Shown: positions 3,341 through 60,925 of the stretch, in pieces | Numbering within the stretch: the first letter of the stretch is position 1 | How the letters are laid out: each line of letters starts with the position of its first letter | Assembly (NCBI GenBank): GCA_030700025.1 | Contig: JAUYKI010000017.1 | Span: 2,748 to 66,747, forward strand | Length of the DNA: 64,000 nucleotides | Direction of reading: 5' to 3' | Source of the DNA: a bacterium | GTDB lineage: Bacteria > Patescibacteriota > Minisyncoccia > UBA6257 > 02-FULL-45-10c | Notes under the pieces: generated by a model | The model's database searches: none | Seen by the model: only the letters and a program-made list of their open reading frames with translations | Told to the model about the DNA's origin: nothing | Made by a program: the position numbers and the translations under genes

Positions 3341-3399
3341 TTTTTTAAATTGGACATTTAGAATTTTATTAGAAATTAGATATTAGTAATTAGAAATTT

Positions 3400-4716: not shown

Positions 4717-5745
4717 ATGGAAAAAGGAACTTTATTTGAGATTAGCTGGAGCAGCCTGTGGCGCATAGTGGTAATGCTGGTTTTGGGCAGCATTGTTTTT
4801 TTTGCTAAAGACGTTTTGGTGGCGGTGGCTTTGGCGATAGTCATTTCCTCGGCCTTTGATCCGCTGGTGAGCGCTTTGGAGCGCTGGCGGATTCCCCGGG
4901 TTTTGGGCACTCTTGGCATTTTTATTTTGATTATTGTCGGTTTAGCAATGGTGCTTTACACTATTGTTCCTTTGGCGCTTTCGGAGTTAAACGTTTTGTT
5001 GAATACTTTAACCGAAATTGACGCTCCGTTTTTGGGATTGGAACAATTATCCGCGGTAGTTAAAACCCTTAACGAGGGAATCGGCCGGCTGGCGAATCTT
5101 TTAATCAGCGGCAGCGCTTCTATATTAGATGCCGTATCTCGGTTTTTGGGCGGAATTGCTTTAGTAATCTCGGTTTTTATCCTTTCCTTCTATTTAACTA
5201 TTGACCGGGACGGCATAGAGAACTTCTTAAAGGCAATTTTGCCGCCTAGTTACGAAGATCAGGTTTTAGATATTTATTTCCGGGTCCGGAGGAAGATTGG
5301 CCGCTGGCTGCAGGGCCAGATTTTCTTGAGCTTGAGCATCGGTTTTAGCACCTTTATAGCCCTTTGGAGTTTGGGAATTAAATACAGCCTGATCCTGGGA
5401 ATCTTGGCTGGTATGTTAGAAATTGTTCCGTTTGTGGGCCCGATTTTCAGCGGCGCCATAGCTTTCTTGATTGCCCTTTCGCAGTCATTCTCGTCGGCAA
5501 TTTACGTTCTGATACTTTTTATCGTGATTCAGCAATTAGAAGGGCATTTATTGGTACCGACTTTTATGCGTTTGGCCACCGGCTTGAATCCGGCTTTAAT
5601 TCTGATCGCCCTTTTAATCGGAAGCCAGCTTTTGGGATTTATCGGATTGATTTTGGCGGTTCCAGCCGCGGTGCTGGCGCAAGAAGTTATTAATTTCTGG
5701 TCTTTGTCTAAAAACAAAAAGAAGGCAGCGATGCTAAACGTTTAG
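4717..5745 (+). CDS. AI-2E family transporter (PerM/UPF0118 membrane protein)
   Basis: 342-aa polytopic membrane protein with the AI-2E-like pattern (…QIFLSLSIGF…LEIVPFVGPIFSGAIAFLIAL…). Confidence 0.75.
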   Translation: MEKGTLFEISWSSLWRIVVMLVLGSIVFFAKDVLVAVALAIVISSAFDPLVSALERWRIPRVLGTLGIFILIIVGLAMVLYTIVPLALSELNVLLNTLTEIDAPFLGLEQLSAVVKTLNEGIGRLANLLISGSASILDAVSRFLGGIALVISVFILSFYLTIDRDGIENFLKAILPPSYEDQVLDIYFRVRRKIGRWLQGQIFLSLSIGFSTFIALWSLGIKYSLILGILAGMLEIVPFVGPIFSGAIAFLIALSQSFSSAIYVLILFIVIQQLEGHLLVPTFMRLATGLNPALILIALLIGSQLLGFIGLILAVPAAVLAQEVINFWSLSKNKKKAAMLNV

Positions 5746-5773
5746 AATCTAGAATCTAATATCTAGAATAAGA

Positions 5774-5797
5774 ATCGCCAAAACGGCGATTTTTTAT
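5774..5797 (+). terminator. Rho-independent terminator after the AI-2E transporter gene
   Basis: Hairpin ATCGCCAAAACGGCGAT followed by TTTTTTATT. Confidence 0.7.
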
Positions 5798-5802
5798 TAT
5801 TT

Positions 5803-6092
5803 AGAACCTATCTCAATAATATTTCCTAACCGCGTTGCTAAGATAAATGCCAGATTTCAAGGCACGACGACGAAATTATGGCCATAGCCACATTGAGGAG
5901 GAGTAACGAAGAAATATGGCATTTAGACCGCAACCCAAAGGGACATAGTAAATTTTGTTCATAACTTCGTTGCTCGGGCTCGACGTAGCCAAGCTACAGT
6001 CTCGCCCCTGCCTGCCGGTAGGCAGGCTCGCGCCTTGTTCTGAATCAAAATTTACTTATATCGCGTTTGGAATTATTATTGGGATAGGTTCT
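5803..6092. repeat. Family-A palindromic intergenic element, copy 1 (~290 bp); its 3' end abuts the metG ATG
   Basis: Terminal inverted repeat AGAACCTATCTCAATAATATTTCC … GGAATTATTATTGGGATAGGTTCT. Internal conserved core GCCATAGCCACAyTGAGGAGG…AACGAAG … CTTCGTTGCTCG. Related copies at 27767-28041 and 44559-44831. Confidence 0.7.
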
Positions 6093-6093
6093 T

Positions 6094-7722
6094 ATGTCTA
6101 AGTTCTATATCACTACCTCTATTGCTTATGTTAATGCCGCCCCGCATATTGGTTTTGCGCTGGAAGCGGTTCAGGCGGACGTAGTTGCCCGCTGGCATAA
6201 GCAGGAGGAAGTCTTCTTTTTAACCGGCACAGACGAGCACGGAGCGAAAATTGCCAGGGCCGCGGCCGCCTCGCGCGGCGAGGCGCCGCCGAAAGCGAGC
6301 CTCGCCACTGGCGGGAGCCTCGCCCCAAAGGGGCGGGAAGCCGACAATAAGTTAATAAAAGAATTTGTTGATCAGCAAGCAGAAAAGTTTAAAGCGTTAA
6401 AAAGCGCGCTTAATTTATCCTGGGACAACTTCATCCGGACTTCCGACCAAAAAGTTCATTGGCCGGTGGCGCAAGAAGTCTGGAAGCGGATTGCGGAGGC
6501 GGGCGATTTATATAAAAAAACTTATCAGGGGCTTTATTGCGTCGGCCACGAAGCGTTTGTTACCCAGAAAGACTTAGTGGCGGAAACCCCGACGCTAGAG
6601 GGTCGGGGCTCCGACCGAAGCGCCGGAGATGCCTTAGTATGTAAAGATCATAAAAAAGCCCCGGAGCTTATAGAAGAAGAAAACTGGTTTTTTAAATTAT
6701 CAAAATATACGAAAGATATTGAATTGCGAATAAAGAATGATGAATTACGGATTATTCCGGAAGGCCGGAAAAATGAGGTTTTGGGCTTGCTTAAGGACGA
6801 TCCGGAAGATGGTTCGGCAAGCTCACCACAAGACGTGAGTTTCTCCCGGCCGAGCAAAGACTTAACCTGGGGCGTTCCGGTGCCGGGCGATGATTCGCAA
6901 ACCATGTATGTCTGGGCAGATGCCCTCACGAACTATATTAGCGGTTATGGCGGAGTTAAAAACTGGGAAAAGCATCCGGCGGATATCCATTTTATCGGTA
7001 AAGATATTTTACGTTTTCACGCGATCATTTGGCCGGCGATGCTTTTATCGGCAAAATTGCCCTTGCCGAAAACTATTTTTGTGCACGGCCATATTTTGTC
7101 TGACGGGCAGAAGATGTCTAAATCCTTAGGCAATGTGGTGGATCCGTTTGAATTAGTAAAAAAGTATGGTTCGGCAAGCTCATCACAAGCTGGCACAGAT
7201 GCAGTTCGGTATTTTCTTTTGCGGGAAATTCCGTCGGCGGAAGACGGCGATTTTAGCTATGAAAAATTTACCCAGCGGTATAACGCGGATTTGGCAAACG
7301 GATTAGGTAATTTTGCGGCCCGGGTTTTAACCCTTGCGAGTAATTACAGCGAATATTTTACAATTCACGCTAACCCCCAGAACGTTCACGAGGTGGTTAA
7401 TGACAAAATTAAGGAAACCCAATTATTAGCTAATAAGAAAATCACGGATTTTAAACTTAACGAAGCACTAGAAATAATTTGGAGCTTAATCCATTTTGGG
7501 GATCAGTATATAAATGAAAAAAAACCATGGGAGCGAAAGGATGAAAAAATAATAGAGGCAAATGGCGTAGCGATTCACAGTTCGGTAGCAATTTTAAATA
7601 ACGTGGCGATTTTACTCCAACCATTTTTGCCGGACACCGCGGATAAAATTACCAAGAGCATCGTTTGGGAAGAAGGTAGGCTGGAAATCCAAAAGACCGA
7701 AAATTTATTTCCGAGATTGTAA
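6094..7722 (+). CDS. metG: Methionine--tRNA ligase (core enzyme, no C-terminal tRNA-binding extension)
   Basis: N-terminal HIGH region (YVNAAPHIGFALEA), KMSKS motif (QKMSKSLGN), and the DAVRYFLLREIP anticodon-binding motif. Contains three in-frame low-complexity insertions (see findings). Confidence 0.9.
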   Translation: MSKFYITTSIAYVNAAPHIGFALEAVQADVVARWHKQEEVFFLTGTDEHGAKIARAAAASRGEAPPKASLATGGSLAPKGREADNKLIKEFVDQQAEKFKALKSALNLSWDNFIRTSDQKVHWPVAQEVWKRIAEAGDLYKKTYQGLYCVGHEAFVTQKDLVAETPTLEGRGSDRSAGDALVCKDHKKAPELIEEENWFFKLSKYTKDIELRIKNDELRIIPEGRKNEVLGLLKDDPEDGSASSPQDVSFSRPSKDLTWGVPVPGDDSQTMYVWADALTNYISGYGGVKNWEKHPADIHFIGKDILRFHAIIWPAMLLSAKLPLPKTIFVHGHILSDGQKMSKSLGNVVDPFELVKKYGSASSSQAGTDAVRYFLLREIPSAEDGDFSYEKFTQRYNADLANGLGNFAARVLTLASNYSEYFTIHANPQNVHEVVNDKIKETQLLANKKITDFKLNEALEIIWSLIHFGDQYINEKKPWERKDEKIIEANGVAIHSSVAILNNVAILLQPFLPDTADKITKSIVWEEGRLEIQKTENLFPRL

Positions 7723-7744
7723 TAACCCCGGTACTAAAAAGAAA

Positions 7745-8470
7745 AATCCCCCGACATGCGTCAGGGGAAATGATGATGGGCAACAGTTGCTTTGCAGTGT
7801 TATGAGGTATTAGCCTCTAGCCATAAAGTGGCTGTCTGTTCTGCGTTGCTTCTGTTGCCGTTGACTCGGAATTTTGTCAGGGCGGGTGGACACCGGGTTA
7901 GCTCGCGCGGCTGAAAGAAAGTCAGCCTTCTATTCCCGGCGCCACCTTTGGCAGTGAGATGGTTGTAACACCCCACCGGCCAGCAGCCTGCCCCGACTTT
8001 ACGTCGGGGTCCCCTCCGGCTTGTGACCGGAGGATGATTCCAAATAGCAGTTGCCTTTCGCAGATTATGAGCCTATTGGGCTCTGACCAAAAAAGTGGTC
8101 TTCTTTCTGTTAGCTTCTGTTATTGGATGATTCCGCCCCGACGCTTTGTAAGCCGTCGGGGATACTGCTACTTGGTGAGCCGGTCCTAAGGTAGCGAATC
8201 TTTGGTTTCCTACCCACCAAGATGATGCTTCTTATTGTAGTTAAGGAACGAAAGTAGCGCGATGTGACTCTGCAACTGTCCAGTTTGTGTTGCATCGGAG
8301 CGGAATACCCGGGTGGACGGCCCCAAGGCTCCTACGGCTCTTTGCCTGATCTCGGGTTCTTCCCGACGTCAACCAAGCATTGTAAGAACCAAAGCCAGCA
8401 TCGCTAAGTAAGGATAGCACACCTCAAACCCTTTGTCAATAGCGGGTTTGCAATCTCTAAATTCTAATCC
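7745..8470. other. ORF-free hairpin-rich region of ~700 bp between metG and tatD (candidate structured RNA or decayed element)
   Basis: No ORF longer than 76 codons on either strand. Coding-like GC content. Several strong GC hairpins: CCCCGACtttacGTCGGGG, CCTCCGGcttgtgaCCGGAGG, CCCCGACGctttgtaagcCGTCGGGG. Internal duplicated segment ('GGATGATTCC', 'TTCTGTT…GCTTCTGTT'). Includes a 17-nt string GGTCCTAAGGTAGCGAA identical to a universally conserved 23S rRNA segment, but the flanks are not rRNA-like. Confidence 0.35.
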
Positions 8471-8603
8471 CTAATCTCTAAATAAACTCGAAGCTCAAAT
8501 ATCCGGATTTTTAAATTTTATTTTTGAGATTGGACATTGGAAATTGTTTAGAAATTAGGGTTTAGGAATTAGAAATTTATCAAAACATGTTATTATTAAT
8601 TCC

Positions 8604-9473
8604 ATGAAACTTTTTGATTCTCACACCCACGTTCAATTCTCGGCTTACGATAATGACCGCGAAGAAGTTATTAAACGCGCTCGAGAAGCGGGCGTAAAAA
8701 TGATTTGCGTGGGTACGCAGTTTTCCACTTCCGAGGCGGGGATAAAATTGGCGGAAAAATATCCGGACGATATTTGGGCGTCGGTTGGTTTTCATCCGAA
8801 TCACGCGGTGAGCGAGGGCTGGCATCACGATCCGGACGAACAAAGCGAAGCTCGGCCGGAAAAGTTTGATTCGGACCAATTGGAAAAATTAGCCCTGAAT
8901 CCGAAAGTGGTGGCGATTGGGGAATGCGGATTGGACTACTATAGAATCAGGAATGATGAATTAGGAATTAAGAATAAGCAGAAAGAAGTTTTTTTGGCGC
9001 AAGCGGAGATTGCCCAAAAATTAAATAAAGCCCTTATGATTCATTGCCGTTCCTCGGTTTTGAAAAGCCCCGAAGGTAAATCAATAAAAACTGACGATGC
9101 TTATGAAGACCTATTTAACTTAATGACCAATAACCAATTACCAATAACCAAAGTAATTCACTTTTTTGCCGGGTCTTTAGAAATAGCAAAAAAATTATTA
9201 AATGCCGGCTGTTATTTTACTTTTGGCGGGGTCATAACGTTTACCCGGGATTATGACGAGGCAATTAAATATCTTCCTTTGGACAGAATCCTTTTGGAAA
9301 CCGACGCGCCCTATGTCGCGCCGGAGCCGTACCGGGGGAAGAGGAATGAGCCGGCTTATGTTGTGGAAGTAGCGAAAAAAATGGCGGAGTTCAAAGGCGT
9401 AAGTTTGGAGAAGGTGGCGGAAGCGACCACGCAAAATAACTTGACTATTTTTAGATTATCTGATATTGTATAG
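8604..9473 (+). CDS. tatD: TatD-family metal-dependent hydrolase (DNase)
   Basis: N-terminal FDSHTHV motif, GECGLDYY, and C-terminal LLETDAPY motif. Confidence 0.85.
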   Translation: MKLFDSHTHVQFSAYDNDREEVIKRAREAGVKMICVGTQFSTSEAGIKLAEKYPDDIWASVGFHPNHAVSEGWHHDPDEQSEARPEKFDSDQLEKLALNPKVVAIGECGLDYYRIRNDELGIKNKQKEVFLAQAEIAQKLNKALMIHCRSSVLKSPEGKSIKTDDAYEDLFNLMTNNQLPITKVIHFFAGSLEIAKKLLNAGCYFTFGGVITFTRDYDEAIKYLPLDRILLETDAPYVAPEPYRGKRNEPAYVVEVAKKMAEFKGVSLEKVAEATTQNNLTIFRLSDIV

Positions 9474-9551
9474 GCAGTTTCACTTTGATAAGCCCTCCGA
9501 CGGGTTCGACAAGCTCACCGCGGGCAATCTTGGGGTAAAGGAGGCGCTAAC

Positions 9552-11745: not shown

Positions 11746-11891
11746 AGAAAGAGTGTTTTATTCTCCCGCTACTGTTCAAACTCCCGGCGAGAGTTTTCAC
11801 TGGGTCTCGGGCTTCGCTCTTTCCGCCTTTGGCGGAAAACCCTGCCCGCTCAGCCCTCAGCCCGCGCTACGGAGAATAAAACACTCTTTCT
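11746..11891. repeat. Family-B palindromic element, copy 1 (~146 bp)
   Basis: Terminal inverted repeat AGAAAGAGTGTTTTATTCTC … GAGAATAAAACACTCTTTCT. The interior is the reverse complement of the copy at 36625-36809 (shared GAGCGAAGCCCGAGACCCAGTGAAAAC and GCTGAGCGGGCAGGG blocks). Confidence 0.7.
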
Positions 11892-11996
11892 AATTTTTAT
11901 GGAAATAAAAAAACCACGGCTTAACGCACCGTGGTATTGATTAGCGCCCTTGCTAATGCCCGCAAGAGTAAAGGGTTATGCCGAAACGGGCCCTGA

Positions 11997-12440: not shown

Positions 12441-14966
12441 ATGAAGTACGACTTCAAAAAGATAGAAAAAAAGTGGCAGAAGACTTGGAGTAAGAATGAC
12501 TACGCCGTCTGGCACGCGGAGGAAAAGCCCAGGGCAAGGGAAATGTATGTTTTGGACATGTTTCCGTATCCTTCCGGCGAAGGTTTGCATGTGGGCCATG
12601 TGGAGGGCTACACTGCCTCGGATATTTTAAGCCGTTATTATCGGATGCGCGGTTTTAATGTTTTGCACCCAATGGGCTGGGACGCTTTCGGTTTGCCCGC
12701 GGAAAATTACGCGATTAAAAAGAAGGTCCATCCCGCGGAAGTAGTGAAGCAAAATGTTAAGCGGTTCAAAGAACAGCTGAACAAGCTGGGCTTCAGCTAT
12801 GACTGGCAAAGGGAAGTGAATACCACCGACCCGGAATATTATAAGTGGACTCAATGGATTTTCCTCCAGCTTTTTGAAAAGGGCTTGGCTTATGAAGCGG
12901 AAGTGCCGGTGAATTGGTGCCCGAAAGATAAAACGGTTTTAGCGAACGAGGAAGTGATTGACGGCTGTTGTGAACGCTGTAGCGAACAGGTGGAAAGGAA
13001 AAATCTCAAGCAATGGGTTTTAAAAATCACGGCTTACGCGGACCGGCTTTTAAAGGACTTGGAAGATTTGGACTGGCCGGACAAAGTGAAAGAAATGCAG
13101 AAAAATTGGATCGGCCGTTCCGAGGGCGCGGAAATTGATTTTCCAGTGGCTAATTCCACTTTAAAAATAAAAGTCTTCACCACCCGGCCGGACACGATTC
13201 CGGGAGTTACTTATTTAGTGCTGGCGCCGGAACATGCGCTGATTTCCCAGCTGGACGCGAGAATTACCAATCCGAACGCGGTTAAGGAATATCTGGAAAC
13301 CGCCAGGCATAAATCGGAACGGGAAAGAATCGCCGATATCAGGCAAAAAACCGGAGTGGAATTGCGGGGCATCAAGGCCGTGAATCCTTTAACCGGAAAA
13401 GAAATACCGGTTTGGACTTCGGATTACGTTTTATCCGGCTACGGCACCGGAGCGATTATGGCGGTTCCGGCGCATGACCAGCGGGATTTTGAATTTGCCA
13501 AGAATTTCGAATTGCCGATTGTCCAGGTCATTTCCCTTACCGGACGGGAAGAGGATTTAGCGTCGGCGTACGGAGGCGACGGCATTATGATTAACGCCGG
13601 CGAAGAATTAAACGGCTTGGGCAATCAGTTAGCGAAAGAAACAATTATTGAAAAATTGGAAGCTCATAAAAAGGTAAATTATAAGCTTCGGGACTGGGTA
13701 TTTTCCCGCCAGCGTTATTGGGGAGAACCTATACCGCTTATTTTTTGTGAACAGTGTAAAAAACAAGCGGTAAATTCCAAATTCCAAACTCCAAATTCCA
13801 AACATAATGAATTTAACGAAGGCGAGATTTTAAATCCGGGCTGGGTTCCGGTGCCGGAAGAAGATTTGCCGGTAGAACTGCCGAAAGTTAAAAACTATGA
13901 GCCGACCGGTTCGGCGGAGTCTCCGCTAGCAGGGATTGATAAGTGGGTGAATGTAAAATGTCCGCAATGCGGCGAGCCGGCGAAAAGAGAAACCAACACT
14001 ATGCCGCAATGGGCGGGCTCTTGCTGGTATTATCTCGCGTATATTTTAAGTGAAAAGTTAAAAGTTAAAAGTGACAAAGATTTTTGGGATAAAAAATCTT
14101 TGGATTATTGGCTGCCGGTGGATGTTTATATCGGCGGAGTAGAGCACGCCGTACTCCATCTTTTATATGCTCGTTTTTGGCATAAGTTTTTGCATGATAT
14201 TGAAGCTGTTTCTACGAAAGAGCCGTTTCAGCGGTTGGTGAATCAGGGCTTGATTTTGGGACCGGATAATCAAAAGATGTCCAAATCCCGCGGGAACGTG
14301 GTTAATCCGGATGAGCTGGTAGAAAAGTTCGGAGCGGATTCTTTGCGGTTATATGAAATGTTTATGGGGCCGTTGGAAGACGCTAAACCGTGGCAGCCGG
14401 ACGGAATTGTCGGCGTGCATCGGTTTCTTAATCGTGTATGGAATCTAGTAGGCGAAAAGCGAAAAACGAAAAGCGAAAAGACGGACGATAAATTAGAAAG
14501 ATTATTACACAAGACGATTAAAAAAGTTACTGAAGACGTAGAGGGGCTTAAATTTAATACCGCTATTTCCAGTTTAATGATTTTAGTGAATGAAATGGAG
14601 AAGGCGGAGTCAATAGTTAATAGTCAATTGTTATTAGTTACTAAGTTGCTGTTTCCTTTTGCTCCGCATATTGCCCAAGAGCTTTGGAGCCAGCTTGGCC
14701 CTTCGGCAAGTTCAGGACAAGCAAGCTTGCTGGATCATGAAGATTGGCCGAAATATGACGAGAAATTGATTACCGAAGAAGACTTTGAGCTTTTGATTCA
14801 GGTTAACGGAAAATTGCGCGATAAGGTTATGGTTTCAAAAAATACTACGCAAGAAGAAGCGGAGAAGTTGGTTTTGGGAATGGAAAAGATTAAAGAGTTT
14901 GTCGGCAAAGCTAAGCCTAAAAAAATAATTTTTGTGCCAGGCCGGTTAATTAATATTGTGGTTTAG
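12441..14966 (+). CDS. leuS: Leucine--tRNA ligase
   Basis: HVGHVEGY (HIGH) motif, KMSKSRGN, and CP1 editing-domain layout; 841 aa. Contains three in-frame heptamer-repeat insertions. Confidence 0.95.
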   Translation: MKYDFKKIEKKWQKTWSKNDYAVWHAEEKPRAREMYVLDMFPYPSGEGLHVGHVEGYTASDILSRYYRMRGFNVLHPMGWDAFGLPAENYAIKKKVHPAEVVKQNVKRFKEQLNKLGFSYDWQREVNTTDPEYYKWTQWIFLQLFEKGLAYEAEVPVNWCPKDKTVLANEEVIDGCCERCSEQVERKNLKQWVLKITAYADRLLKDLEDLDWPDKVKEMQKNWIGRSEGAEIDFPVANSTLKIKVFTTRPDTIPGVTYLVLAPEHALISQLDARITNPNAVKEYLETARHKSERERIADIRQKTGVELRGIKAVNPLTGKEIPVWTSDYVLSGYGTGAIMAVPAHDQRDFEFAKNFELPIVQVISLTGREEDLASAYGGDGIMINAGEELNGLGNQLAKETIIEKLEAHKKVNYKLRDWVFSRQRYWGEPIPLIFCEQCKKQAVNSKFQTPNSKHNEFNEGEILNPGWVPVPEEDLPVELPKVKNYEPTGSAESPLAGIDKWVNVKCPQCGEPAKRETNTMPQWAGSCWYYLAYILSEKLKVKSDKDFWDKKSLDYWLPVDVYIGGVEHAVLHLLYARFWHKFLHDIEAVSTKEPFQRLVNQGLILGPDNQKMSKSRGNVVNPDELVEKFGADSLRLYEMFMGPLEDAKPWQPDGIVGVHRFLNRVWNLVGEKRKTKSEKTDDKLERLLHKTIKKVTEDVEGLKFNTAISSLMILVNEMEKAESIVNSQLLLVTKLLFPFAPHIAQELWSQLGPSASSGQASLLDHEDWPKYDEKLITEEDFELLIQVNGKLRDKVMVSKNTTQEEAEKLVLGMEKIKEFVGKAKPKKIIFVPGRLINIVV

Positions 14967-15165: not shown

Positions 15166-17028
15166 ATGTGCGGTATAGTCGGTTACATCGGAAAACAGAA
15201 AGCCGCTCCCATACTTTTGGACGGCATTAAAAGCTTGGAGTATCGCGGTTATGATTCAGCGGGAATTTCCGTGATTAATAATCAAGGAGGAGTGGCGGAG
15301 GCGCAAGTGGAAAAAGCGGTTGGCAAAGTAATTAATTTAGAAAATAAAATAAAGTCCCGGGAGCTGTTAGGCGGCCTCGGGATTATTCATACCCGCTGGG
15401 CCACTCATGGCGGAGCCACCGAGGCCAATGCTCATCCGCATAGCGATTGCGCTGGCAATATTTGGCTGGTTCACAATGGAATTATTGAGAATTATAAAGA
15501 GCTAAAAAATGAACTGATTTCCGCCGGCCATCAGTTTAAATCGGAAACTGACACGGAAGTCGTTGCTCATTTAATCGAAGAGCAAGTTAAAAGTTTAAAG
15601 TCAAAAGTTCAAAGTTATGCGTTAGAGGACGCGGTGCGGTTAGCTTTGAAAAAAGTCCGCGGAGCTTACGCGCTGGCGATTATTGATAAGCGCGAGCCGG
15701 AAAAATTAGTGGCCGTCCGGAATTCCAGCCCGCTGATTTTGGGAATCGGCAATGATGAATATCTGGTGGCTTCGGACGCTTCGGCGGTAGTAAAGCATAC
15801 CCGCAAAGTGATTTATTTTAATGACGGCGAAATGGCAATTTTAACTCCGGATAATCATCGGGTGGTTAATCTGGAAAACCAGGCAGTAGATTCTCAGCCG
15901 CAAGAATTAGATTGGACTGTGGAAAGCGCCCAGAAAGGAGGCTATCCGCATTTTATGCTGAAAGAAATTTTTGAACAGCCGGAAGCGGTAGAAAATTGTT
16001 TGCGCGGAAGATTGGTAGTTCAAGAGGGAACGGCTAAACTGGGCGGATTGGAATCCATTAAAGATAAATTGCGGGAAATAAAAAGAATTCATATTTCCGC
16101 CTGCGGTACGGCTTATTTGGCCGGAAAAGTGGGTGAATATATGCTGGAAGAATATGCCGGCATTCCGGTAGAAGTGGATTTGGCTTCCGAGCTTCGTTAT
16201 CGCAAACCCGTTTTTGATAATCATGACGCGGTGCTGGTGATTTCCCAATCCGGAGAAACGGCGGATACGCTGGCTTCGGTAAAAGAAGCCAAGGAAAAGG
16301 GAATTTTAACTTTAGGCATTGTTAATACGGTGGGATCGTCCATTGCCCGGGAAACCGAAGCCGGAATTTATCAGCATATCGGTCCGGAAATCGGCGTAGC
16401 TTCCACCAAAGCATTTACTTCGCAGGTGGCGGTGCTGGCGCTCTTAACTTTATTTTTGGGAAGGCAGCGGCAAATGTCTTTGGTAACCGGCGAGCGGATC
16501 GCGCGGGAATTGCAGAGGTTGCCGGAATTAATCCGAAAAGTTTTGCAGTCCGAAGATTTAATAAAACAAATCGCCGTCAAATATCAGACCCACAATAATT
16601 TTTTATACTTAGGCCGGAAATATAATCTGCCGATTGCTTACGAGGGAGCGTTAAAATTAAAAGAAATTTCCTATATCCACGCTGAAGGCTATGGCGCCGG
16701 AGAAATGAAGCACGGCCCGATTGCCATGATTGACCAGAATTTGCCGTCGGTAGTAATTGTTCCGTCGGACTCGGTTTATGAAAAAACTGTTTCTAATATT
16801 GAGGAAATTCGCGCCCGTCGAGGTCCGGTTATCGCCATTGCCACTGAAGGCAACGAAGATATTAAAAGTTTGGCGGACGACGTTATTTATATTCCGAAAT
16901 CTTTGGAAATGCTGACTCCGATTTTATCGGCGGTTCCGCTCCAGCTTTTTGCTTATCATGTCGGAGTTTTGCGGGGATTGGACGTAGATAAGCCCCGTAA
17001 TCTCGCTAAATCGGTTACCGTGGAATAA
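15166..17028 (+). CDS. glmS: Glutamine--fructose-6-phosphate aminotransferase (isomerising)
   Basis: N-terminal MCGIVGY with a Cys2 nucleophile; two SIS domains; C-terminal …SVTVE; 620 aa. Confidence 0.95.
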   Translation: MCGIVGYIGKQKAAPILLDGIKSLEYRGYDSAGISVINNQGGVAEAQVEKAVGKVINLENKIKSRELLGGLGIIHTRWATHGGATEANAHPHSDCAGNIWLVHNGIIENYKELKNELISAGHQFKSETDTEVVAHLIEEQVKSLKSKVQSYALEDAVRLALKKVRGAYALAIIDKREPEKLVAVRNSSPLILGIGNDEYLVASDASAVVKHTRKVIYFNDGEMAILTPDNHRVVNLENQAVDSQPQELDWTVESAQKGGYPHFMLKEIFEQPEAVENCLRGRLVVQEGTAKLGGLESIKDKLREIKRIHISACGTAYLAGKVGEYMLEEYAGIPVEVDLASELRYRKPVFDNHDAVLVISQSGETADTLASVKEAKEKGILTLGIVNTVGSSIARETEAGIYQHIGPEIGVASTKAFTSQVAVLALLTLFLGRQRQMSLVTGERIARELQRLPELIRKVLQSEDLIKQIAVKYQTHNNFLYLGRKYNLPIAYEGALKLKEISYIHAEGYGAGEMKHGPIAMIDQNLPSVVIVPSDSVYEKTVSNIEEIRARRGPVIAIATEGNEDIKSLADDVIYIPKSLEMLTPILSAVPLQLFAYHVGVLRGLDVDKPRNLAKSVTVE

Positions 17029-20019: not shown

Positions 20020-20068
20020 TTGGCTTGTATCGCGTTATGGGATTACTATTAGAATAGGTTCTATTATG
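20020..20068. repeat. Partial family-A element, 3' portion of ~50 nt, abutting the ATG of the downstream secreted-protein gene
   Basis: TTGGCTTGTATCGCGTTATGGGATTACTATTAGAATAGGTTCTATTATGG. Compare the copy-3 end TTGGCTAATATCGCGTTATGGGATTATTATTGGGATAGGTTCTATG. Confidence 0.55.
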
Positions 20069-33060: not shown

Positions 33061-34599
33061 ATGGGACCGGAAGAAGCAGATCAGTTAGTTCAGAAATATT
33101 TTAAGCGAAAGGGATTGCCGTTAATGCCAGCAGTTACCTTTGATGATGTTTTAGTTCGGGAAGGAATTTCCAGCATTGCTAGCCGGAGCGACATTACTAA
33201 TTTAAAGGCTCAGCTGGCAAAAGATTTTTGGCTGAATATTCCGGTAGTGTCCGCTAATATGGACACGGTTACGGATTCGCGTATGGCAATTGCTTTGGCT
33301 CGGCTGGGCGGTATGGGTTTCATCCATCAGTTCGTTTCGCTGGAAGACCGGCTGGAAGAAGTCAGCAAGGTTAAGCGGGCGGACAATATGGTGATTGAAA
33401 ATCCGGCGACCATTCGTCCGGAAGCAACTTGGGCGGAAGCGCAAGCGGTAATGGCGGAACGGGAAATTTCCTGTTTGCTGGTTACTGACGCGCAAGGAAT
33501 TTTGGCCGGCATCTTAACGTCGCGCGATACTCAATTTTGTTCCGACCCCAACGCTTTAGTTGGAGATTTAATGACTCCGAAAACCAGAGACGGACACTTT
33601 GTTTTGCAAACTGCCCGTCCGGATATTTCCAATGAAGACGCGGAAAAAATGTTAAAGCGTTCCAAGGTAGAAAAACTTCCTTTAATAGATGATGAGGGCA
33701 AGGTGGTTGGATTGATTACGGCGAAAGATATTTTAAAGCGCCGGATGTTTCCCAACGCGGCCCGGGACGAAAAGGGCCAGCTGTTAGTTGGCGCTACTTT
33801 GCGGTTCAGCGGAAATTATTTGGAAGAAGCGAAAGCGTTGATCGACGCCGGAGCGGATGTATTGCTGTTAGATACGGCGCGAGCCAGTTCTTCATCAGAG
33901 GACGGAATTTTGGCGTCGCAGTATTTAACGCCCGGGAAAATTGTGGAATTAGCCGCGGAAAGAACCGCGAAAATTAAATACGTGTTTCCAAAAATAGTTT
34001 TAGTGGTTGGTAATACTGCCAATCCGGAAGCGGTGGCGCTTCTGGCAAGCCGTGGAGCGGATTGCGTTAAAATCGGAATTGGGCCGGGAGCGGGATGTAA
34101 GACTCAGGAAGTAGCCGGAATCGGTTCGCCTCAGCTTCACGCGATCGCGCAATGCGCGGCGGTGGCCAGAGAAATCGGAGTTTGTTTAATGGCTGACGGC
34201 GGAATTAGAAATGGCGGTTGCATGGTTAAAGCGCTAGTTGGCGGAGCAAATGTGGTGATGCTGGGAAGTTTGCTGGCGGGAACCGACAAATCTCCGGGCC
34301 TGCTGGTTTGGAATCGAAAGGAAAATAAACTGGTTAAGAAATACCGCGGTTCGGCATCCACTGAACATCAGCTGGATAGGATTAAAGTTGGGGATTTGCA
34401 CGCGGTTAGAACGTCAGAGGGCGAAGCCGGAGCGGTTCCTTACATGGGCACGACGGTTTCGCTGATTGATGATCTGCTTGGCGGATTGCGGTCGGGCATG
34501 AGTTATGTCGGCGCCCATAACCTAGAAGAGCTTTGGCAGTTCGGCAGATTTGTTTGGAGAACGCAGGCCGGAATTGAAGAAGGAAGACCCCGAATATAA
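33061..34599 (+). CDS. guaB: IMP dehydrogenase (TIM barrel with CBS pair)
   Basis: Catalytic-loop motifs GIGPGAGCKTQ and GGIRNGG; tandem CBS insert; 512 aa. Confidence 0.9.
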   Translation: MGPEEADQLVQKYFKRKGLPLMPAVTFDDVLVREGISSIASRSDITNLKAQLAKDFWLNIPVVSANMDTVTDSRMAIALARLGGMGFIHQFVSLEDRLEEVSKVKRADNMVIENPATIRPEATWAEAQAVMAEREISCLLVTDAQGILAGILTSRDTQFCSDPNALVGDLMTPKTRDGHFVLQTARPDISNEDAEKMLKRSKVEKLPLIDDEGKVVGLITAKDILKRRMFPNAARDEKGQLLVGATLRFSGNYLEEAKALIDAGADVLLLDTARASSSSEDGILASQYLTPGKIVELAAERTAKIKYVFPKIVLVVGNTANPEAVALLASRGADCVKIGIGPGAGCKTQEVAGIGSPQLHAIAQCAAVAREIGVCLMADGGIRNGGCMVKALVGGANVVMLGSLLAGTDKSPGLLVWNRKENKLVKKYRGSASTEHQLDRIKVGDLHAVRTSEGEAGAVPYMGTTVSLIDDLLGGLRSGMSYVGAHNLEELWQFGRFVWRTQAGIEEGRPRI

Positions 34600-34711
34600 A
34601 TTTCTAATTACTAATTTCTAATTACTAATGACTAAGTTCAAAATTCAAATCCCGCAATTGCGGGATTTTTTATTTGAAAATACTTCAAAATTGATTTAAT
34701 ATATTTTCAAC

Positions 34712-36624: not shown

Positions 36625-36809
36625 AAAAGAAACTTTATTCTCCGTAGCGCGGGCTGAGCCTGCCTGCCGGTAGGCAGGGGCTGAGCGGGCAGGGTGTCCC
36701 GCGAAGCGGGACGAGCGAAGCCCGAGACCCAGTGAAAACTTCCCTCACTCTTGTACAAAAGTGAGGGACTGGGAGTTTGAACGGTAGCGGGAGAATAAAG
36801 TTTCTTTTC
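36625..36809. repeat. Family-B palindromic element, copy 2 (~185 bp); its right end overlaps the comFC stop codon
   Basis: GAAAAGAAACTTTATTCTC … GAGAATAAAGTTTCTTTTC arms. The internal hairpins differ from copy 1 but stay complementary. It also carries the CCCTCACTCTTG…CAAAAGTGAGGG hairpin and the GCCTGCCGGTAGGCAGG hairpin also present in family-A copy 1. Confidence 0.7.
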
Positions 36810-37543: not shown

Positions 37544-37750
37544 TGGATTCCAATAACTAATTTCTAATATCTAATTTCTAATAAAATGACCGAAATCACA
37601 AACCACAAGCACCAAATCACAAACAAGCACCAATGACCAAAATCATAAATTTAAAACCCGTTTGGAATTTCTATTATTTGAATTTAGAATTTGTTTGTAA
37701 TTTGAGATTTGTAATTTGGAATTTTATCAGAAATTGTAAATTGTAAATTT

Positions 37751-44558: not shown

Positions 44559-44831
44559 GAACCTATCCCAATAATAATCCTCAAACGCGTTGCTAGTATA
44601 AATTGAAAATTTCTAGGCCTGCCGAGGAGCTTGTGGCCATAGCCACAGTGAGGAGGCAGAACAACGAAATTTTCAATTTAGACAGCAACCCCAAGAGGGA
44701 TACAGCCAATTTTATCCATAACGTCGTTGCTCGTCGAAGATATAGCTTACGCTATAAATCTTCTCCTCGCGTCTAGTTCTGAATAAAATTGGCTAATATC
44801 GCGTTATGGGATTATTATTGGGATAGGTTCT
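44559..44831. repeat. Family-A palindromic element, copy 3; begins 2 nt after the pilC stop
   Basis: GAACCTATCCCAATAATAATCC … GGATTATTATTGGGATAGGTTC arms; core GCCATAGCCACAGTGAGGAGG … CTTCTCCTCG. Confidence 0.7.
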
Positions 44832-44932
44832 ATGTTACACTTATTAAAGGTCGGAAATAAGATGTAATACCAATATACGAATTATTCGTATCATTAGTAT
44901 GAATTAGTATATTAGTATCTCATTATAAATAT

Positions 44933-48076: not shown

Positions 48077-50476
48077 ATGATTAAGGGGTTGCGCATTTTT
48101 ATTATTTTATCCGGAGCGTTTCTTTTGTCTTCTTCCGCCCTGGCGGGGTCGGGGGTTTATTCAGCTAATATTTTTGACGCCGGATTAAATGTATCTGGCG
48201 TTGGGCCGGTTGATTATTCGGATATTTTGAGCGCTCGGCTGGCGGGCTGGAATAATTTATTGCAAAGAGTTAATCCCCAAACCCCGCCTAATTATTGGAT
48301 TTGGCTTGGCCATATTGCGTCTTATGGTTATGCTGGATGCAGCAGCGCTTCTATCGGCGCTTTGTCGAGCGCTTATGGCAATCAATATGGTTTGGAAGTT
48401 TATAAAGATTCGGCAACCGGAAATTGCACGGCGCTTCAATCCAAACCGCTTTCTTCCGGCGCCACCCACTCAATAAATTTAACTAAATCCGGATTGGGAG
48501 ACGGGACAGTTAGTTCCAATCCAACCGGCATTAGTTGCGGAGCGATTTGTTCCAGCGATTTTACTCATGGCGCCAGCGTTGCGCTTAGCGCGGCTGCGGA
48601 TGGAGTTTCGCAGTTTGCCGGCTGGGGAGGAAATTTTTGCGCCGCTACCAGCACGCCAAGTAATTGTATGGCGCTGATGGTCAGCGACCGGACGATTACC
48701 GCAACTTTCGTTCCGATCGGAACCCCATTAAATACTTTAACCGTTCAAAAAATTGCAGTTGGCAATGCCAATGGCGTGATTACGGATTCCGGACTGGGCC
48801 AAGGGTCATTTTTAAATATTAATTGCGGAACTGATTGTTCCGAGTCCTATGTTGCCGGCGCGTCAGTTATTCTTTATGCCTATCCTAATGCCGAATCTAA
48901 TTTCGGATCTTGGGTTGGCTGTAATAGCGTTTCCGGCAATGCCTGCACGGTAACGATGAGCGCGGCCAAAAATGTCCGGGCTGGTTTTAGTAATAAAAAT
49001 TTTCCGGTTACGGTTTCTAAGACTGGAGCGGGAACCGGCAGCGTGTCTGGCACCGGAATTAATTGCGGAGCGACTTGTTCCGCGAATCTTTCGGCCGGAA
49101 ACGGATTTTTGTTTATTGCCAGCCCGGGGGTTAATTCTAAATTTGAAAGTTGGAGCGGCTGCGATTATTCAGCGGGAAATAATTGCTTAATAGATGTATT
49201 TTCGGCTAAATCAATTACCGCGAATTTCTCCGCCTCTTATGCGGTCACCGTTACGAAAAGCGGTAATGGCGCGCCTGCGGGCAGCGTTACTTCTACTGGC
49301 GGAATAGACTGCGGAATTATTTGTTCGGCTAGTTTTGTTCCGGGAGCTAATGTAGCTTTAACCGCCTCCGTGGGCGATCCTCAATATCAATTTTCCGGCT
49401 GGGGAGGCGATTGCGCTTCTTTCGGAACTAATCTAACCTGCAGTTTAAATAACATTTCTTCCGCTAAATCAGTTTCCGCTGTTTTTGATGCTGTTCGCCC
49501 GACTTTAACTATTACCAAATCCGGCACCGGAGACGGATCGTTTAGTATTAGCGGCGGTTCACCAATTTGCACCCCCGGTTGCGTTTACGCGTATGGCTCG
49601 GTAGTGACAATTTCCGCTACTCCAAACGCCTTTTCTACATTTACCGGCTGGACCGGTGATTGCGCTAGTTTTGGCGCGAACACCACCTGTACTTTAACTA
49701 TGACTTCTAATAAAAGCGCCTCGGCTATTTTTGACTTGCCGGTTCTGACTTTAAATAAGAGCGGCGCCGGGCAGGGAACGGTTTCGGATGCCCCATTGAA
49801 AATTAATTGCGACCCGTCTTGCGTTACTGCTTCCGCTAGTTACAACAAGCAAAGCTCCGTAACTCTGACCGCGGCGCCGGACGCCGATTCCAGCTTTTTT
49901 GACTGGTCCGGCTGTGATAATTTTACCCCCACCACCTGCACGATATTAATGAATACCCACCGGACCGTTACAGCCGATTTTTTAGCCACGGACGTTAAAT
50001 ATGATTTAACGGTTTCTAAGTCCGGAGCGGGCGACGGAACAGTTACTTCTTCGGTGGCGGGAATTAATTGCGGCGCCGATTGTTCTGAAAAATATATTGA
50101 AAATTCCGATATCGTTCTCCACTCGTCTTCTAATCTTGATTCAGCCTTTGTCGGCTGGACCGGATGCGATAGCGTTAATGGCAATTCCTGCGTAGTTACT
50201 ATGAGTACCGCGAAAAATATTAGCGCGGAATTTGCCGCGTCGCCGGTGTCCGGAAGTTATTCTTTGAGTGTTTTTAAAGTTCCGGACGGCGGAACAATAG
50301 TTTCCAGTGAAAGTTATATTGATTGCGGCGGGACTTGTTCCAAAACCCTAGGCACTGTTTGGAGCACTACACTGACCGTAATGACTAATAATGATTATCA
50401 ATTTGCCGGATGGACTGGAGATTGCACCAGCACCAGCGGAAGCTCATGCGTAATTAATTTTACCCAATGCCAATAA
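48077..50476 (+). CDS. Giant secreted surface protein made of ~9 tandem divergent InlB B-repeat domains
   Basis: Signal peptide followed by ~85-aa repeats with the pattern TVxKSGxGxGTVxS…GIxCGxxCS…Y…G..V.LxAxP…S.FxGWxGxC…..C.V.M…K.VxA.F, each with two Cys pairs. Confidence 0.7.
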   Translation: MIKGLRIFIILSGAFLLSSSALAGSGVYSANIFDAGLNVSGVGPVDYSDILSARLAGWNNLLQRVNPQTPPNYWIWLGHIASYGYAGCSSASIGALSSAYGNQYGLEVYKDSATGNCTALQSKPLSSGATHSINLTKSGLGDGTVSSNPTGISCGAICSSDFTHGASVALSAAADGVSQFAGWGGNFCAATSTPSNCMALMVSDRTITATFVPIGTPLNTLTVQKIAVGNANGVITDSGLGQGSFLNINCGTDCSESYVAGASVILYAYPNAESNFGSWVGCNSVSGNACTVTMSAAKNVRAGFSNKNFPVTVSKTGAGTGSVSGTGINCGATCSANLSAGNGFLFIASPGVNSKFESWSGCDYSAGNNCLIDVFSAKSITANFSASYAVTVTKSGNGAPAGSVTSTGGIDCGIICSASFVPGANVALTASVGDPQYQFSGWGGDCASFGTNLTCSLNNISSAKSVSAVFDAVRPTLTITKSGTGDGSFSISGGSPICTPGCVYAYGSVVTISATPNAFSTFTGWTGDCASFGANTTCTLTMTSNKSASAIFDLPVLTLNKSGAGQGTVSDAPLKINCDPSCVTASASYNKQSSVTLTAAPDADSSFFDWSGCDNFTPTTCTILMNTHRTVTADFLATDVKYDLTVSKSGAGDGTVTSSVAGINCGADCSEKYIENSDIVLHSSSNLDSAFVGWTGCDSVNGNSCVVTMSTAKNISAEFAASPVSGSYSLSVFKVPDGGTIVSSESYIDCGGTCSKTLGTVWSTTLTVMTNNDYQFAGWTGDCTSTSGSSCVINFTQCQ

Positions 50477-50477
50477 T

Positions 50478-53453: not shown

Positions 53454-53456
53454 AAT

Positions 53457-57093: not shown

Positions 57094-57162
57094 AGTTTAT
57101 TCCCCCTAGACTGCGGTCAGGGGGAATTTTTATTAGGATAGGTTCTTGGTATAATTTAAGTA

Positions 57163-57610: not shown

Positions 57611-59665
<2,055 letters not shown>

Positions 59666-60479: not shown

Positions 60480-60800
60480 ATGGCCGAATTAAGCAAAAAA
60501 ACTTTGGAGCATTTGGCGGAGTTGGCCCGGATTAATTTGAATGAGGAGGCCGCCCAAAAGGGCGAGCCTCGCCCTGGCGAAGCCGGGCGGGAAAAACTGT
60601 TAAATGATTTGCAGATGATTTTGGGGCATTTTGGGGAGTTGCAGGCTTTGGATACTTCAAGCGTCCAGCCAATGACCGGCGGAACTAATTTGGAAAATGT
60701 TTTGCGGAATGACGAAAATGCCACCCAAGACACCGGTAAGGGGCTGGACGCTTTCCCGGAAAATAAAGACGGCTATTTAAAAGTACCGCCCGTATTTTAA
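60480..60800 (+). CDS. gatC: Asp/Glu-tRNA amidotransferase subunit C
   Basis: N-terminal LAELARINLNEEE… and LQ.IL.HF..L..LDTS.V.P pattern. Contains a GC-rich in-frame insert (AAQKGEPRPGEAGREK). Confidence 0.75.
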   Translation: MAELSKKTLEHLAELARINLNEEAAQKGEPRPGEAGREKLLNDLQMILGHFGELQALDTSSVQPMTGGTNLENVLRNDENATQDTGKGLDAFPENKDGYLKVPPVF

Positions 60801-60925
60801 GTAATGAGATACTAATATACTAATATACTAATTCATGCGAATGATACTAATAAAATGCGAATATAAAAGCATTAGTATGCTATTCGTATCATTAGTACCA
60901 TTTGTATATTAGTATCATATTTTTA
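60800..60925. repeat. Palindromic array of TACTAAT/TCGTATCATTAGTA heptamer-type repeats between gatC and gatA
   Basis: The left half (AATGAGATACTAATATACTAATATACTAATTCAT) is the reverse complement of the right half. The same motif occurs upstream of pilA at 44870-44932. Confidence 0.6.

Follow-up and report, generated by a model that had tools for sequence, protein, structure and literature searches.

Short repeat modules inserted in frame into essential genes of a Candidate Phyla Radiation bacterium

Introduction

The methionine--tRNA ligase gene (metG, 6094-7722, + strand) on a 64-kb stretch of contig JAUYKI010000017.1, hereafter termed the window, carries four in-frame inserts that neither its nearest relatives (80-90% identical) nor the solved structures of the enzyme (MetRS) possess, and related sequences lie within gatC and leuS as well as in intergenic DNA. 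These sequences form at least three families of modules, termed here F1, F2 and F3, which are very short, non-autonomous and present in genes and intergenic DNA of many uncultivated bacteria. We consider it probable that they are selfish modules, comparable to repetitive extragenic palindromes (REPs), Rickettsia palindromic elements (RPEs) or mitochondrial “GC clusters”, which were copied into genes and survive there only as multiples of three nucleotides (3n) in loops. The main examples of in-frame “selfish DNA in genes” come from Rickettsia, with intragenic REPs in a few other bacteria, and from organelles; the phenomenon would hereby reach the Candidate Phyla Radiation (CPR), a group of tiny genomes with many unexplained insertions that have so far been described only for rRNA genes (PMC9698310). 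A literature search found no paper on the peptides concerned, on the F3 sequence or on in-frame repeat insertions in CPR proteins.

The window has a GC content of ~45% and most of its genes are on the + strand. The best named homologues of its MetRS come from Candidatus Harrisonbacteria and Parcubacteria, and the host is therefore a CPR (Patescibacteria) bacterium of the Parcubacteria type. Pfam scans of the open reading frames (ORFs) identified a type IV pilus/competence cluster alongside housekeeping genes, while an Rfam scan of the window at gathering thresholds returned six tRNAs and nothing else. A first-pass annotation, made from the letters of the window, had drawn attention to GC-rich palindromic blocks in metG and gatC together with a second short motif, and had likened them to RPEs. 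The observation is real and its interpretation is partly supported, being right in spirit, too narrow, and mislabelled as to family; the phenomenon extends to F2 hairpins as well as to an AT-rich palindrome and arrays of AT-rich heptamers, each of these being found both between genes and in frame within them. Such modules account for the low-complexity stretches SASSPQ, SLAP/EPRP..GRE and PTPxGRGSD in CPR proteins and in metagenomic “hypothetical proteins”, and bear on annotation, alignment, phylogenomics and structure prediction. The recurrent insert sites additionally map the insertion-tolerant loops of essential enzymes.

Four In-Frame Inserts in metG

The window MetRS is 542 aa long, compared with ~480-490 aa in orthologues, and is 100% identical to a database MetRS with 8000 homologues. 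Its inserts were delimited in a 27-sequence protein alignment, a codon alignment with three related loci (L081, the closest relative, L083 and L084) and an alignment to the Brucella MetRS structure (PDB 4dlp_A). A profile scan of genome contigs with the MetRS alignment gave mostly distant relatives among the matches listed, and close relatives were fetched singly. Insert 1 (6265-6336, + strand), an F1 module, is 72 nt long and encodes AASRGEAPPKASLATGGSLAPKGR at residues 58-81. Its GC content of 0.81 compares with 0.46 over metG as a whole, its layout is GCCGCC..GCGAGCCTCGCC..GGGAGCCTCGCCCC-AAA-GGGGCGG, and it is absent from L081, L083 and 4dlp_A, so that the GC-rich MetRS insert of ~24 residues reported in the first-pass annotation is confirmed as an insert. 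Insert 2 (~6580-6630, + strand; residues ~163-179; GC 0.71) adds a net ~51 nt by codon alignment and is an F2 module, composed of the two hairpins CCCGAC-GCTAGAGG-GTCGGG (6588-6607) and CTCCGAC-CGAAGC-GCCGGAG (6609-6628) and situated between KDL and C183, in the loop of the zinc knuckle.

The two remaining inserts are 24-nt copies of the F3 unit. Insert 3 (6811-6834, + strand, register ambiguous by +/-3 nt; residues GSASSPQD) reads GA[T GGT TCG GCA AGC TCA CCA CAA GA]C, places GSASSPQ between PED and DVSFSRP, and is present only in the window protein among 120 MetRS compared. Insert 4 (7168-7191, + strand; GSASSSQA, between KKY and GTDAVRY) reads TAT GG[T TCG GCA AGC TCA TCA CAA GCT GG]C, places SASSSQAG between KKY(G) and TDAVRY, and is flanked on both sides by TGG (TGG..TGG). 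Chance is a poor account of such sharing within the window, where 0.00 copies of the 22-mer GGTTCGGCAAGCTCAYCACAAG are expected and two are present, and where the shared word GAGCCTCGCC occurs three times against 0.11 expected, a count reached in none of 100 shuffles.

An AlphaFold2 model of MetRS built from the 27-sequence alignment (mean pLDDT 80.5) has a core that superposes on solved MetRS structures with TM scores of 0.80-0.87. Inserts 1-3 are predicted there as coil with pLDDT below 50 and no secondary structure (residues 63-82, 170-177 and 236-244), and insert 4 as a short loop, at pLDDT 74-83, that joins helices 351-358 and 364-378. Orthologue alignment and structure mapping, both proposed along with the original observation, thus bounded four inserts in MetRS and one in GatC, and placed them between conserved segments of the proteins (alignments to 4dlp_A and 2df4_C), as had been claimed. 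An assembly or adapter artefact was considered and rejected: the flanks are continuous and in frame, the inserts vary in an evolutionary manner, and they recur across independent NCBI, ENA, JGI and Logan assemblies.

F1, a Nested GC-Rich Palindrome Shared by metG and gatC

F1 can be written as GCCGCC-N-GGCGAGCCTCGCCC-N-GGGCGG, a nested GC-rich palindrome of ~42-48 nt. The second copy in the window lies in gatC (60480-60800), where an F1 module of 42 nt (60549-60590, + strand; GC 0.79) encodes AAQKGEPRPGEAGR and is laid out as GCCGCC-CAAAAGG-GCGAGCCTCGCCC-TGGCGAAGCC-GGGCGG. The claimed homology of the two blocks is borne out by the GCCGCC, core and GGGCGGGAA layout that the gatC and metG copies have in common. 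Neither the nearest relative (P0122/L206, 90% identical) nor any of 29 other GatC sequences nor PDB 2df4_C has the gatC insert, which is placed between two N-terminal segments that align to the latter structure.

Shorter homologous inserts occur at the same codon as metG insert 1 in L084, L209, L207 and L208 (gaps of 11-17 codons relative to the window). Across five MetRS genes filled at this site and the window gatC, the architecture is GCCGCC - 7-12 nt - G(C/G)GAGCCTCGCCC - 5-14 nt - GGGCGGGA(A/G), in which the 11-nt core GAGCCTCGCCC is invariant at the DNA level. Because the linker lengths differ, this core is read in two frames, as S-L-A-P in the window metG, L084 and L209 and as E-P-R-P in L207, L208 and gatC; as read from the sequences, what is conserved in F1 is the nucleotides and not the peptide. 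The window metG insert is a “SLAP-frame” copy that is ~27 nt bigger and hence holds the core twice. The 3′ half of F1 forms the hairpin CGCCC(C)-loop-(G)GGGCG, in which pairing is kept and the loop varies.

The description “palindromic” held for part of the material. In comparison with shuffled sequences the gatC module folds strongly (z -4.4, 0/200 as good) and metG insert 2 does so as well (z -2.25, 1/200), whereas the 90-nt metG block contains local palindromes and has an overall fold not beyond shuffles (z -1.0, 29/200), and the 24-nt motif forms no hairpin. A search for the 14-mer F1 core in viral contigs gave at least 120 matches, which, by our own estimate of chance, we judged uninformative because the word is short and GC-rich.

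F2 and a 20-nt Hairpin

F2 modules are (C)CCGAC-loop-GTCGG(G) hairpins found in metG and in non-coding DNA. The pattern CCCGAC-N3-14-GTCGGG, searched against shuffles, occurs three times in the window where 0.08 are expected, once in metG and twice in the ORF-free region downstream of it (7992-8008, CCCGACTTTACGTCGGG; 8137-8160, CCCGACGCTTTGTAAGCCGTCGGG; both + strand). An F2-like palindrome, CCCCGAC..GTCAGGGG, also lies after the metG stop codon. In L081 a further 33 nt (11 codons) are inserted in frame within the second F2 hairpin of metG, and by eye they read as a nested TCCCGAC..GTCGGGA hairpin, again of F2 type. F2-like peptides moreover fill the GatC loop in P0124 and P0161.

A second kind of hairpin, a 20-nt perfect one (CCTGCCTGCCGGTAGGCAGG, 6007-6026), gives precise pairs of filled and empty sites. 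It is nested in a ~290-nt element with terminal inverted repeats (TIRs) upstream of metG, which is present in two copies of 76% identity (5795-6092 and 44559-44831), and is precisely missing from the second of these. Another copy (36659-36678) is likewise a precise indel between the two members of a paralogous ~95-nt GC-rich repeat (36636-36732, and 11826-11920 on the reverse strand; TCTCCGTAGCGCGGGCTGAG..GGGCTGAGCGGGCAGGGT..GAGCGAAGCCCGAGACCCAG). The TIR element itself constitutes extra DNA, the spacer between the AI-2E transporter gene and metG being 349 nt in the window against 50-65 nt in relatives; its inverted repeats are GAACCTATCyCAATAATA ... TATTATTGGGATAGGTTC, and related right ends are found at 20038-20062 and 57122-57146.

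In IMG/VR contigs the 20-nt hairpin occurs at 51 distinct places with unrelated flanks and a GC content of 0.33-0.70. There the hairpin (CCTGCCTGCCGGYAGGCAGG) often sits in the middle of a heptamer array in putative viral contigs (L331, L339, L348, L357, L359 and L361), for example as GTGAAAG GTGAGAG G[hairpin]TGAAAG GTGAAAG, a placement that suggests a mosaic hairpin-plus-heptamer architecture.

F3, a Discrete Unit Widespread in Metagenomes

The second motif of the first-pass annotation, said to occur twice in metG and in related forms in leuS and intergenic DNA, could be located at every one of these places. The leuS form (14697-14723, + strand) is the variant “PSASSGQA”, GGC CCT TCG GCA AGT TCA GGA CAA GCA, and, of 15 homologous loci with which it was compared, also in a codon alignment, 14 show it to be an insert; the non-coding form TTCGACAAGCTCACCGCGGG (9505-9524, + strand) lies in the spacer between tatD and a DUF5658 gene. 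This motif does not share the palindromic character of the others. F3, (A)TGG(A)TTCGGCAAGCTCACCACAAG, is instead a sharply bounded, non-palindromic unit of ~24 nt, made up of 21 nt and a TGG, with a wide occurrence in metagenomes.

An exact search of metagenome contigs with the 20-mer TTCGGCAAGCTCAYCACAAG gave at least 120 contigs, of which 80 loci were kept. Over 77 distinct copies with unrelated flanks, information content falls to ~0 left of position -5 and right of +19, a collapse that defines the element as (A)TGG(A) plus 20 nt, ~24 nt in all. The hosts range in GC content from 0.33 to 0.69. An inverted partner is found near one of 78 copies, hence F3 is not one half of a split palindrome, and no hairpin was detected in a fold test. 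There was no match to F3 in 2.9 million viral contigs.

Thirty-eight of the 78 copies lie in sense orientation in a long ORF, 11 in antisense orientation and 29 in a short ORF or none, a sense bias of 38 to 11 (p 1.4e-4); among the 29, at most one to three might break a frame. Every in-gene copy examined, of whichever family, is 3n long and free of stops in the host frame, which is the outcome that had been asked of in-gene copies when the insertions were first proposed. The frame of F3 follows its 5′ variant. ATGG gives xAT GGT TCG GCA AGC TCA CCA CAA (GSASSPQ), and ATGGA, with one extra A, gives GGA TTC GGC AAG CTC ACC ACA AG (GFGKLTT).

Certain sites recur. F3 follows Lys-Tyr-Gly in MetRS of different organisms, every metG copy at the site of insert 4 having the form TGG-21 nt-TGG, and at the DnaK/DnaJ loci L135, L138 and L149 it follows ..ATGTATGG (Met-Tyr-Gly). 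Many other copies are without a 3′ TGG, and some inserts are bracketed by TGG or ATGGTTCGG. Tandem arrays with a 24-nt period occur in L165, L139 and L089; in the ORF of L139, a putative Fe/Mn superoxide dismutase, exactly 2 x 24 nt have been inserted at GATGGTTCGG, a 9-nt match to the 5′ end of the unit. The gene families that recur near F3 loci are ordinary ones, including the recurrent hosts DnaK/DnaJ and MetRS.

Distribution Among MetRS Orthologues

Insert states were mapped onto a neighbour-joining tree of 120 MetRS, in which the sites are numbered after the window inserts. Site 1 is filled in six proteins including that of the window, site 2 in ~19, mostly with the PTPxGRxSDRSVGV type, and site 4 in 10 that are scattered over the tree; site 4 is filled at the loci L117, L122, L131 and L158 as well. 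P0060 and P0097 have GSASSPQ at a different Tyr-Gly site. Sister sequences of insert-bearing MetRS are usually without the insert and the hot spots are patchy. The site-1 segment is not private to the window. A fifth site, after GYG, carries GLNAKASPDxPLxDLG inserts in P0041, P0043, P0044, P0062 and P0074 and is empty in the window.

The site-4 inserts are identical at 21-24 of 24 nt between orthologues that agree at 50-65% of residues and 25-35% of fourfold sites, and the same near-identity is seen in the unbiased sample of 120 proteins. These inserts accordingly arose recently and independently or else are under constraint as nucleotide sequence, and they do not appear to be old neutral sequence.

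Relation to Known Repeat Systems

RPEs are ~100-150 bp long and lie in frame in unrelated genes (Ogata et al., 2000, as recounted in PMC10969869 and PMC3733652). The modules described here are like them in being both intergenic and in frame in unrelated housekeeping genes (metG, gatC and leuS), in encoding peptides at fold-compatible sites, and in having a host with a small genome and an obligately dependent life. The comparison made in the first-pass annotation therefore stands as regards frame-preserving insertion of repeats into essential genes. It does not stand as an assignment, since RPE families are Rickettsia-specific and the modules here measure 24, 24, 42, ~51 and 72 nt in genes and 20-75 nt overall; F3 is in addition non-palindromic, copy number is apparently low, and the same sequences are found across hosts of 33-69% GC. 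With a Parcubacteria/Harrisonbacteria-like host, descent from the RPE families of Rickettsia is implausible. Membership fails on length and lineage, the two being set apart by their descriptions and not by consensus sequences.

REPs tagged with GTAG or CGTC (Di Nocera et al., 2013) are GC-rich hairpins of 20-40 nt, for the most part located downstream of genes; the few that fall within ORFs, often as dimers, add 20-30 residues there, and CGTC REPs have no dedicated transposase (PMC3733652). The F2 hairpins (at 6588, 7992 and 8137) and the 20-nt hairpin agree with the description of a mostly extragenic imperfect palindrome of 20-40 nt, and F3 does not, having no stem-loop. F1 is without an evident unpaired GTAG/CGTC tag; in the few copies available, no tag flanks F1 or the 20-nt hairpin, and one F2 copy has CGTC inside its stem. 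Copy numbers in the window are far below the tens to thousands of REPs, and no RAYT gene was seen there. By copy number, and in the case of F3 also by structure, the modules do not qualify as REPs; the tag appears to be lacking as well.

An especially close parallel for F1 and F2 is the mitochondrial GC cluster GC42 of yeast and others, a 42-nt palindrome with fast turnover that merges with other copies and is exchanged by recombination (Wu and Hao, 2015; PMC4478555). The likeness comprises ~40-nt GC-rich palindromes in a less GC-rich genome, their gain and loss, nesting, exchange by recombination and the want of an element-encoded enzyme, and we indeed found polymorphism, nesting and enlargement, and a site-1 allele shared by scattered lineages. 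GC clusters are, however, organellar, whereas the present modules reside in bacterial genomes and putative phage contigs with a milder GC contrast (0.8 vs 0.45), so that the modules work like mitochondrial GC clusters without being members of them. PARCEL elements are likewise coding repeats with dyad-symmetric DNA and a punctate distribution over distant microbes that suggests horizontal spread; they differ in being domains of 25 residues, repeated in long tandem tracts within proteins that are at the surface or unknown, as opposed to single short units in conserved enzymes. Finally, miniature inverted-repeat transposable elements, which have TIRs and target-site duplications and measure 70-300 bp, are a poor match for the in-gene modules, which are too short and, in the case of F3, show no excess of such duplications; the TIRs in the window belong to the separate ~290-nt element at 5795-6092 and not to the in-gene inserts. 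F3, the most unusual component, fits no described repeat family and so offers a concrete handle on mechanism.

Origin and Persistence of the Modules

That the same DNA is read in different frames in different copies indicates that the unit is DNA and not protein; modules also occur outside genes. In the explanation we favour, the modules would populate intergenic DNA and now and then land inside genes, where a copy would persist only if it is 3n long, stop-free in the frame used and situated in a surface loop. The surviving copies would then pass through transcription and translation to give additional loop peptides, for the most part disordered, of the SLAP/EPRP..GRE, PTPxGRGSD and GSASSPQ types. 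Copying may proceed from another copy or array by template switching or gene conversion guided by homology or microhomology, with F3 joining 3′ of ATGG and F1 making use of GC-rich Ala/Glu codons. Insert-bearing alleles, as at metG site 1, would further spread between lineages by homologous recombination, an exchange that is plausible because the lineage encodes competence pili, and the inserts themselves would be neutral or slightly deleterious passengers.

Several results weigh against this explanation. Pfam scans of the ORFs revealed no transposase, integrase or reverse transcriptase (RT) in the 64-kb window, and 720 ORFs from the 80 F3 loci yielded, after clustering, no transposase or RT. 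Each module family has 2-4 copies in 64 kb, in contrast to classical REP or RPE families, and K-mer enrichment failed to single the modules out, GC-rich codon words being dominant and copy number low. Target-site duplications at F3 show no excess over shuffled flank pairs. Ordinary within-genome selfish spread does not readily explain why identical F3 20-mers turn up at host GC contents of 33-69%, nor why 37 of the 38 sense copies are read as xAT GGx, a frame used by 26% of ATGG in window coding DNA (p ~1e-20). We infer that this frame bias is mainly survivorship, given that Asn/Asp/Tyr/His-Gly are turn sequences and GSASSPQ is benign; taken with the constancy of F3 across GC contents, it also hints at a role of the nucleotides themselves, at a shared template of external origin or at strong selection for the peptide. 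The conservation of F3 is itself partly ascertained, the loci having been found via an exact 20-mer match. Translation of the inserts is presumed from the DNA. Lastly, the insert-bearing alleles at metG site 1 also share eight altered downstream codons (P.E.I..F vs AGKTPKEL). The site-1 copy thus resembles a cassette or allele that was exchanged more than a simple insertion, and it probably spreads by homologous recombination instead of having been inserted afresh here. In the GC-island scan the metG block is the largest of 83 islands, most of which are ordinary coding sequence.

The peculiarities of F3 leave room for a separate origin of this family. F3 and its relatives may come from a cross-phylum process that writes a fixed ~21-24 nt 3′ of ATGG, by a short-template polymerase or a dedicated template switch; we think this unlikely, though worth stating, since F3 would then be a class of mobile or “written” DNA smaller than any now known, able by its length of eight codons to decorate essential enzymes without breaking them, and such writing a possible source of the unexplained short insertions in CPR rRNA genes. 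The broader proposal, that the modules in general are written by a templated polymerase, such as an RT with a short RNA template acting in the manner of telomerase or of defence-associated RTs, appears less likely still. In this scheme an alignment region pairs with a DNA 3′ end in ..ATGG, after which synthesis would add at least one repeat of 21-24 nt and the break would be resealed. Such a scheme suits the sharp ends and constant sequence of F3 in hosts of 33-69% GC, its invariable (A)TGG at the 5′ junction, the arrays of 24-nt period, the TGG-21 nt-TGG form at metG site 4, the near-identity of inserts between orthologues with saturated synonymous sites, and the lack of target-site duplications or of a transposase in the window and at F3 loci. 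An RT gene is, however, neither present in the window nor enriched at the 80 F3 loci, the 2.9 million viral contigs hold no F3, many F3 copies end without a 3′ TGG, and the variable-length palindromes of F1, F2 and the 20-nt hairpin are left unexplained.

No better placed is a function at the level of nucleic acid, whether as RNA hairpins that stabilise mRNA or make it pause or as recognition sites for a protein or for DNA uptake, with the peptides as a by-product. The invariance of the F1 core in two frames and the kept pairing of its 3′ hairpin would be expected of such a function, as would the strength of F2 and the 20-nt hairpin, the similar palindrome after the metG stop codon, the conservation of F3 far above synonymous sites and its sense-strand bias of 38 to 11, and the type IV pilus/competence cluster of the window would suit a role in uptake. 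Against this, every insert is dispensed with in the nearest relatives, in-gene positions differ among lineages and copy number is low; F3 is unstructured, metG insert 1 folds no better than shuffles, and uptake sequences normally come from point mutation and not insertion.

Native, lineage-specific low-complexity loops that arose by local replication slippage, without movement, are a very improbable source. The site-1 target of metG is itself GC-rich (GCGGCGGAGGCGGCC), the window F1 copy in metG holds an internal duplication of its core, and the genome is rich in slippage-type heptamer arrays, also within genes. Yet the same cores of 11-22 nt recur in metG, gatC, leuS, the superoxide-dismutase-like ORF, the DnaK/DnaJ loci and non-coding DNA, in different frames, with sharp boundaries against unrelated flanks and with precise filled and empty paralogous sites, and shuffles exclude a chance convergence of the shared cores. 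Slippage is thereby largely refuted as the origin; what it accounts for is enlargement.

Removal of the inserted bases from the mRNA, or their bypass as in T4 gene 60 and the GC-rich mitochondrial “byp” elements, is scarcely credible and unnecessary because all copies are in frame: the glycine codons around the metG site-4 inserts (GGT ... GGC/GGA) formally recall take-off and landing codons, but the putative take-off codon is not followed by a stop, F3 has no hairpin, all in-gene copies examined are 3n and stop-free in the host frame, and long intact ORFs house 49 of the 78 F3 copies from metagenomes, with at most one to three of the other 29 breaking a frame.

Other Repeats and Structures in the Window

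Besides the modules, the window contains ~24 arrays of 4-5 tandem heptamers, each with a heptamer of its own (5 fixed and 2 variable bases). They include 1780-1817, 2969-2997, 3368-3398, 5743-5769, 8548-8577, 8944-8975, 9122-9151, 13772-13802, 14048-14072, 14452-14480, 14608-14640, 15584-15617, 34599-34635, 37552-37583, 58100-58132, 59220-59252 and 59423-59451, among others. Many stand directly 3′ of stop codons and about half are in frame, in proS, tatD, leuS (four arrays), glmS and ligA (three); those at 2971, 14048 and 15584 have AAGTGAAAAGTTAAAAGT in common. At one site in TatD (9118-9151 of the window; also L001, L084, L081 and L012), an array of 4-5 x 7 nt is present in five lineages, each with a different heptamer (ACCAA-, ATTCC-, AATTC-, CTACG- and ACACG-based), so that the structure is kept and the sequence is not.

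The region after metG (7770-8440) comprises ~650 nt that are ORF-free, hairpin-rich and without an Rfam family. Two parts of it (8048-8121 and 8125-8226) are 85-88% identical to the ORF-free spacer following metG in L081 (5471-5543 and 5922-6025), and we regard the region as a candidate unannotated structured RNA. Next to it, at 8452-8577, is a long AT-rich hairpin made of two inverted heptamer arrays; the miRNA-like Rfam hits that it gave in an E-value scan of 7700-8650 were of plant miRNA families on both strands and were rejected as spurious.

An AT-rich palindromic repeat of the ATACTAAT/ATTCGTAT type is found after gatC (60817-60853) and beside the TIR element (44882-44918). It is 92% identical to positions 4802-4838 of L081, which lie inside metG and encode ..DTNIQIRTNDTNN.. 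in the anticodon-binding domain, and peptides like DTNIQIRTNDTNN are also present in P0006, P0009, P0021 and P0041. Finally, three large adjacent genes with internal repeats (48077-55103; InlB B-repeat-like, LVIVD and Kelch), which include 144-nt tandem repeats at 53619-54076, probably encode surface proteins.

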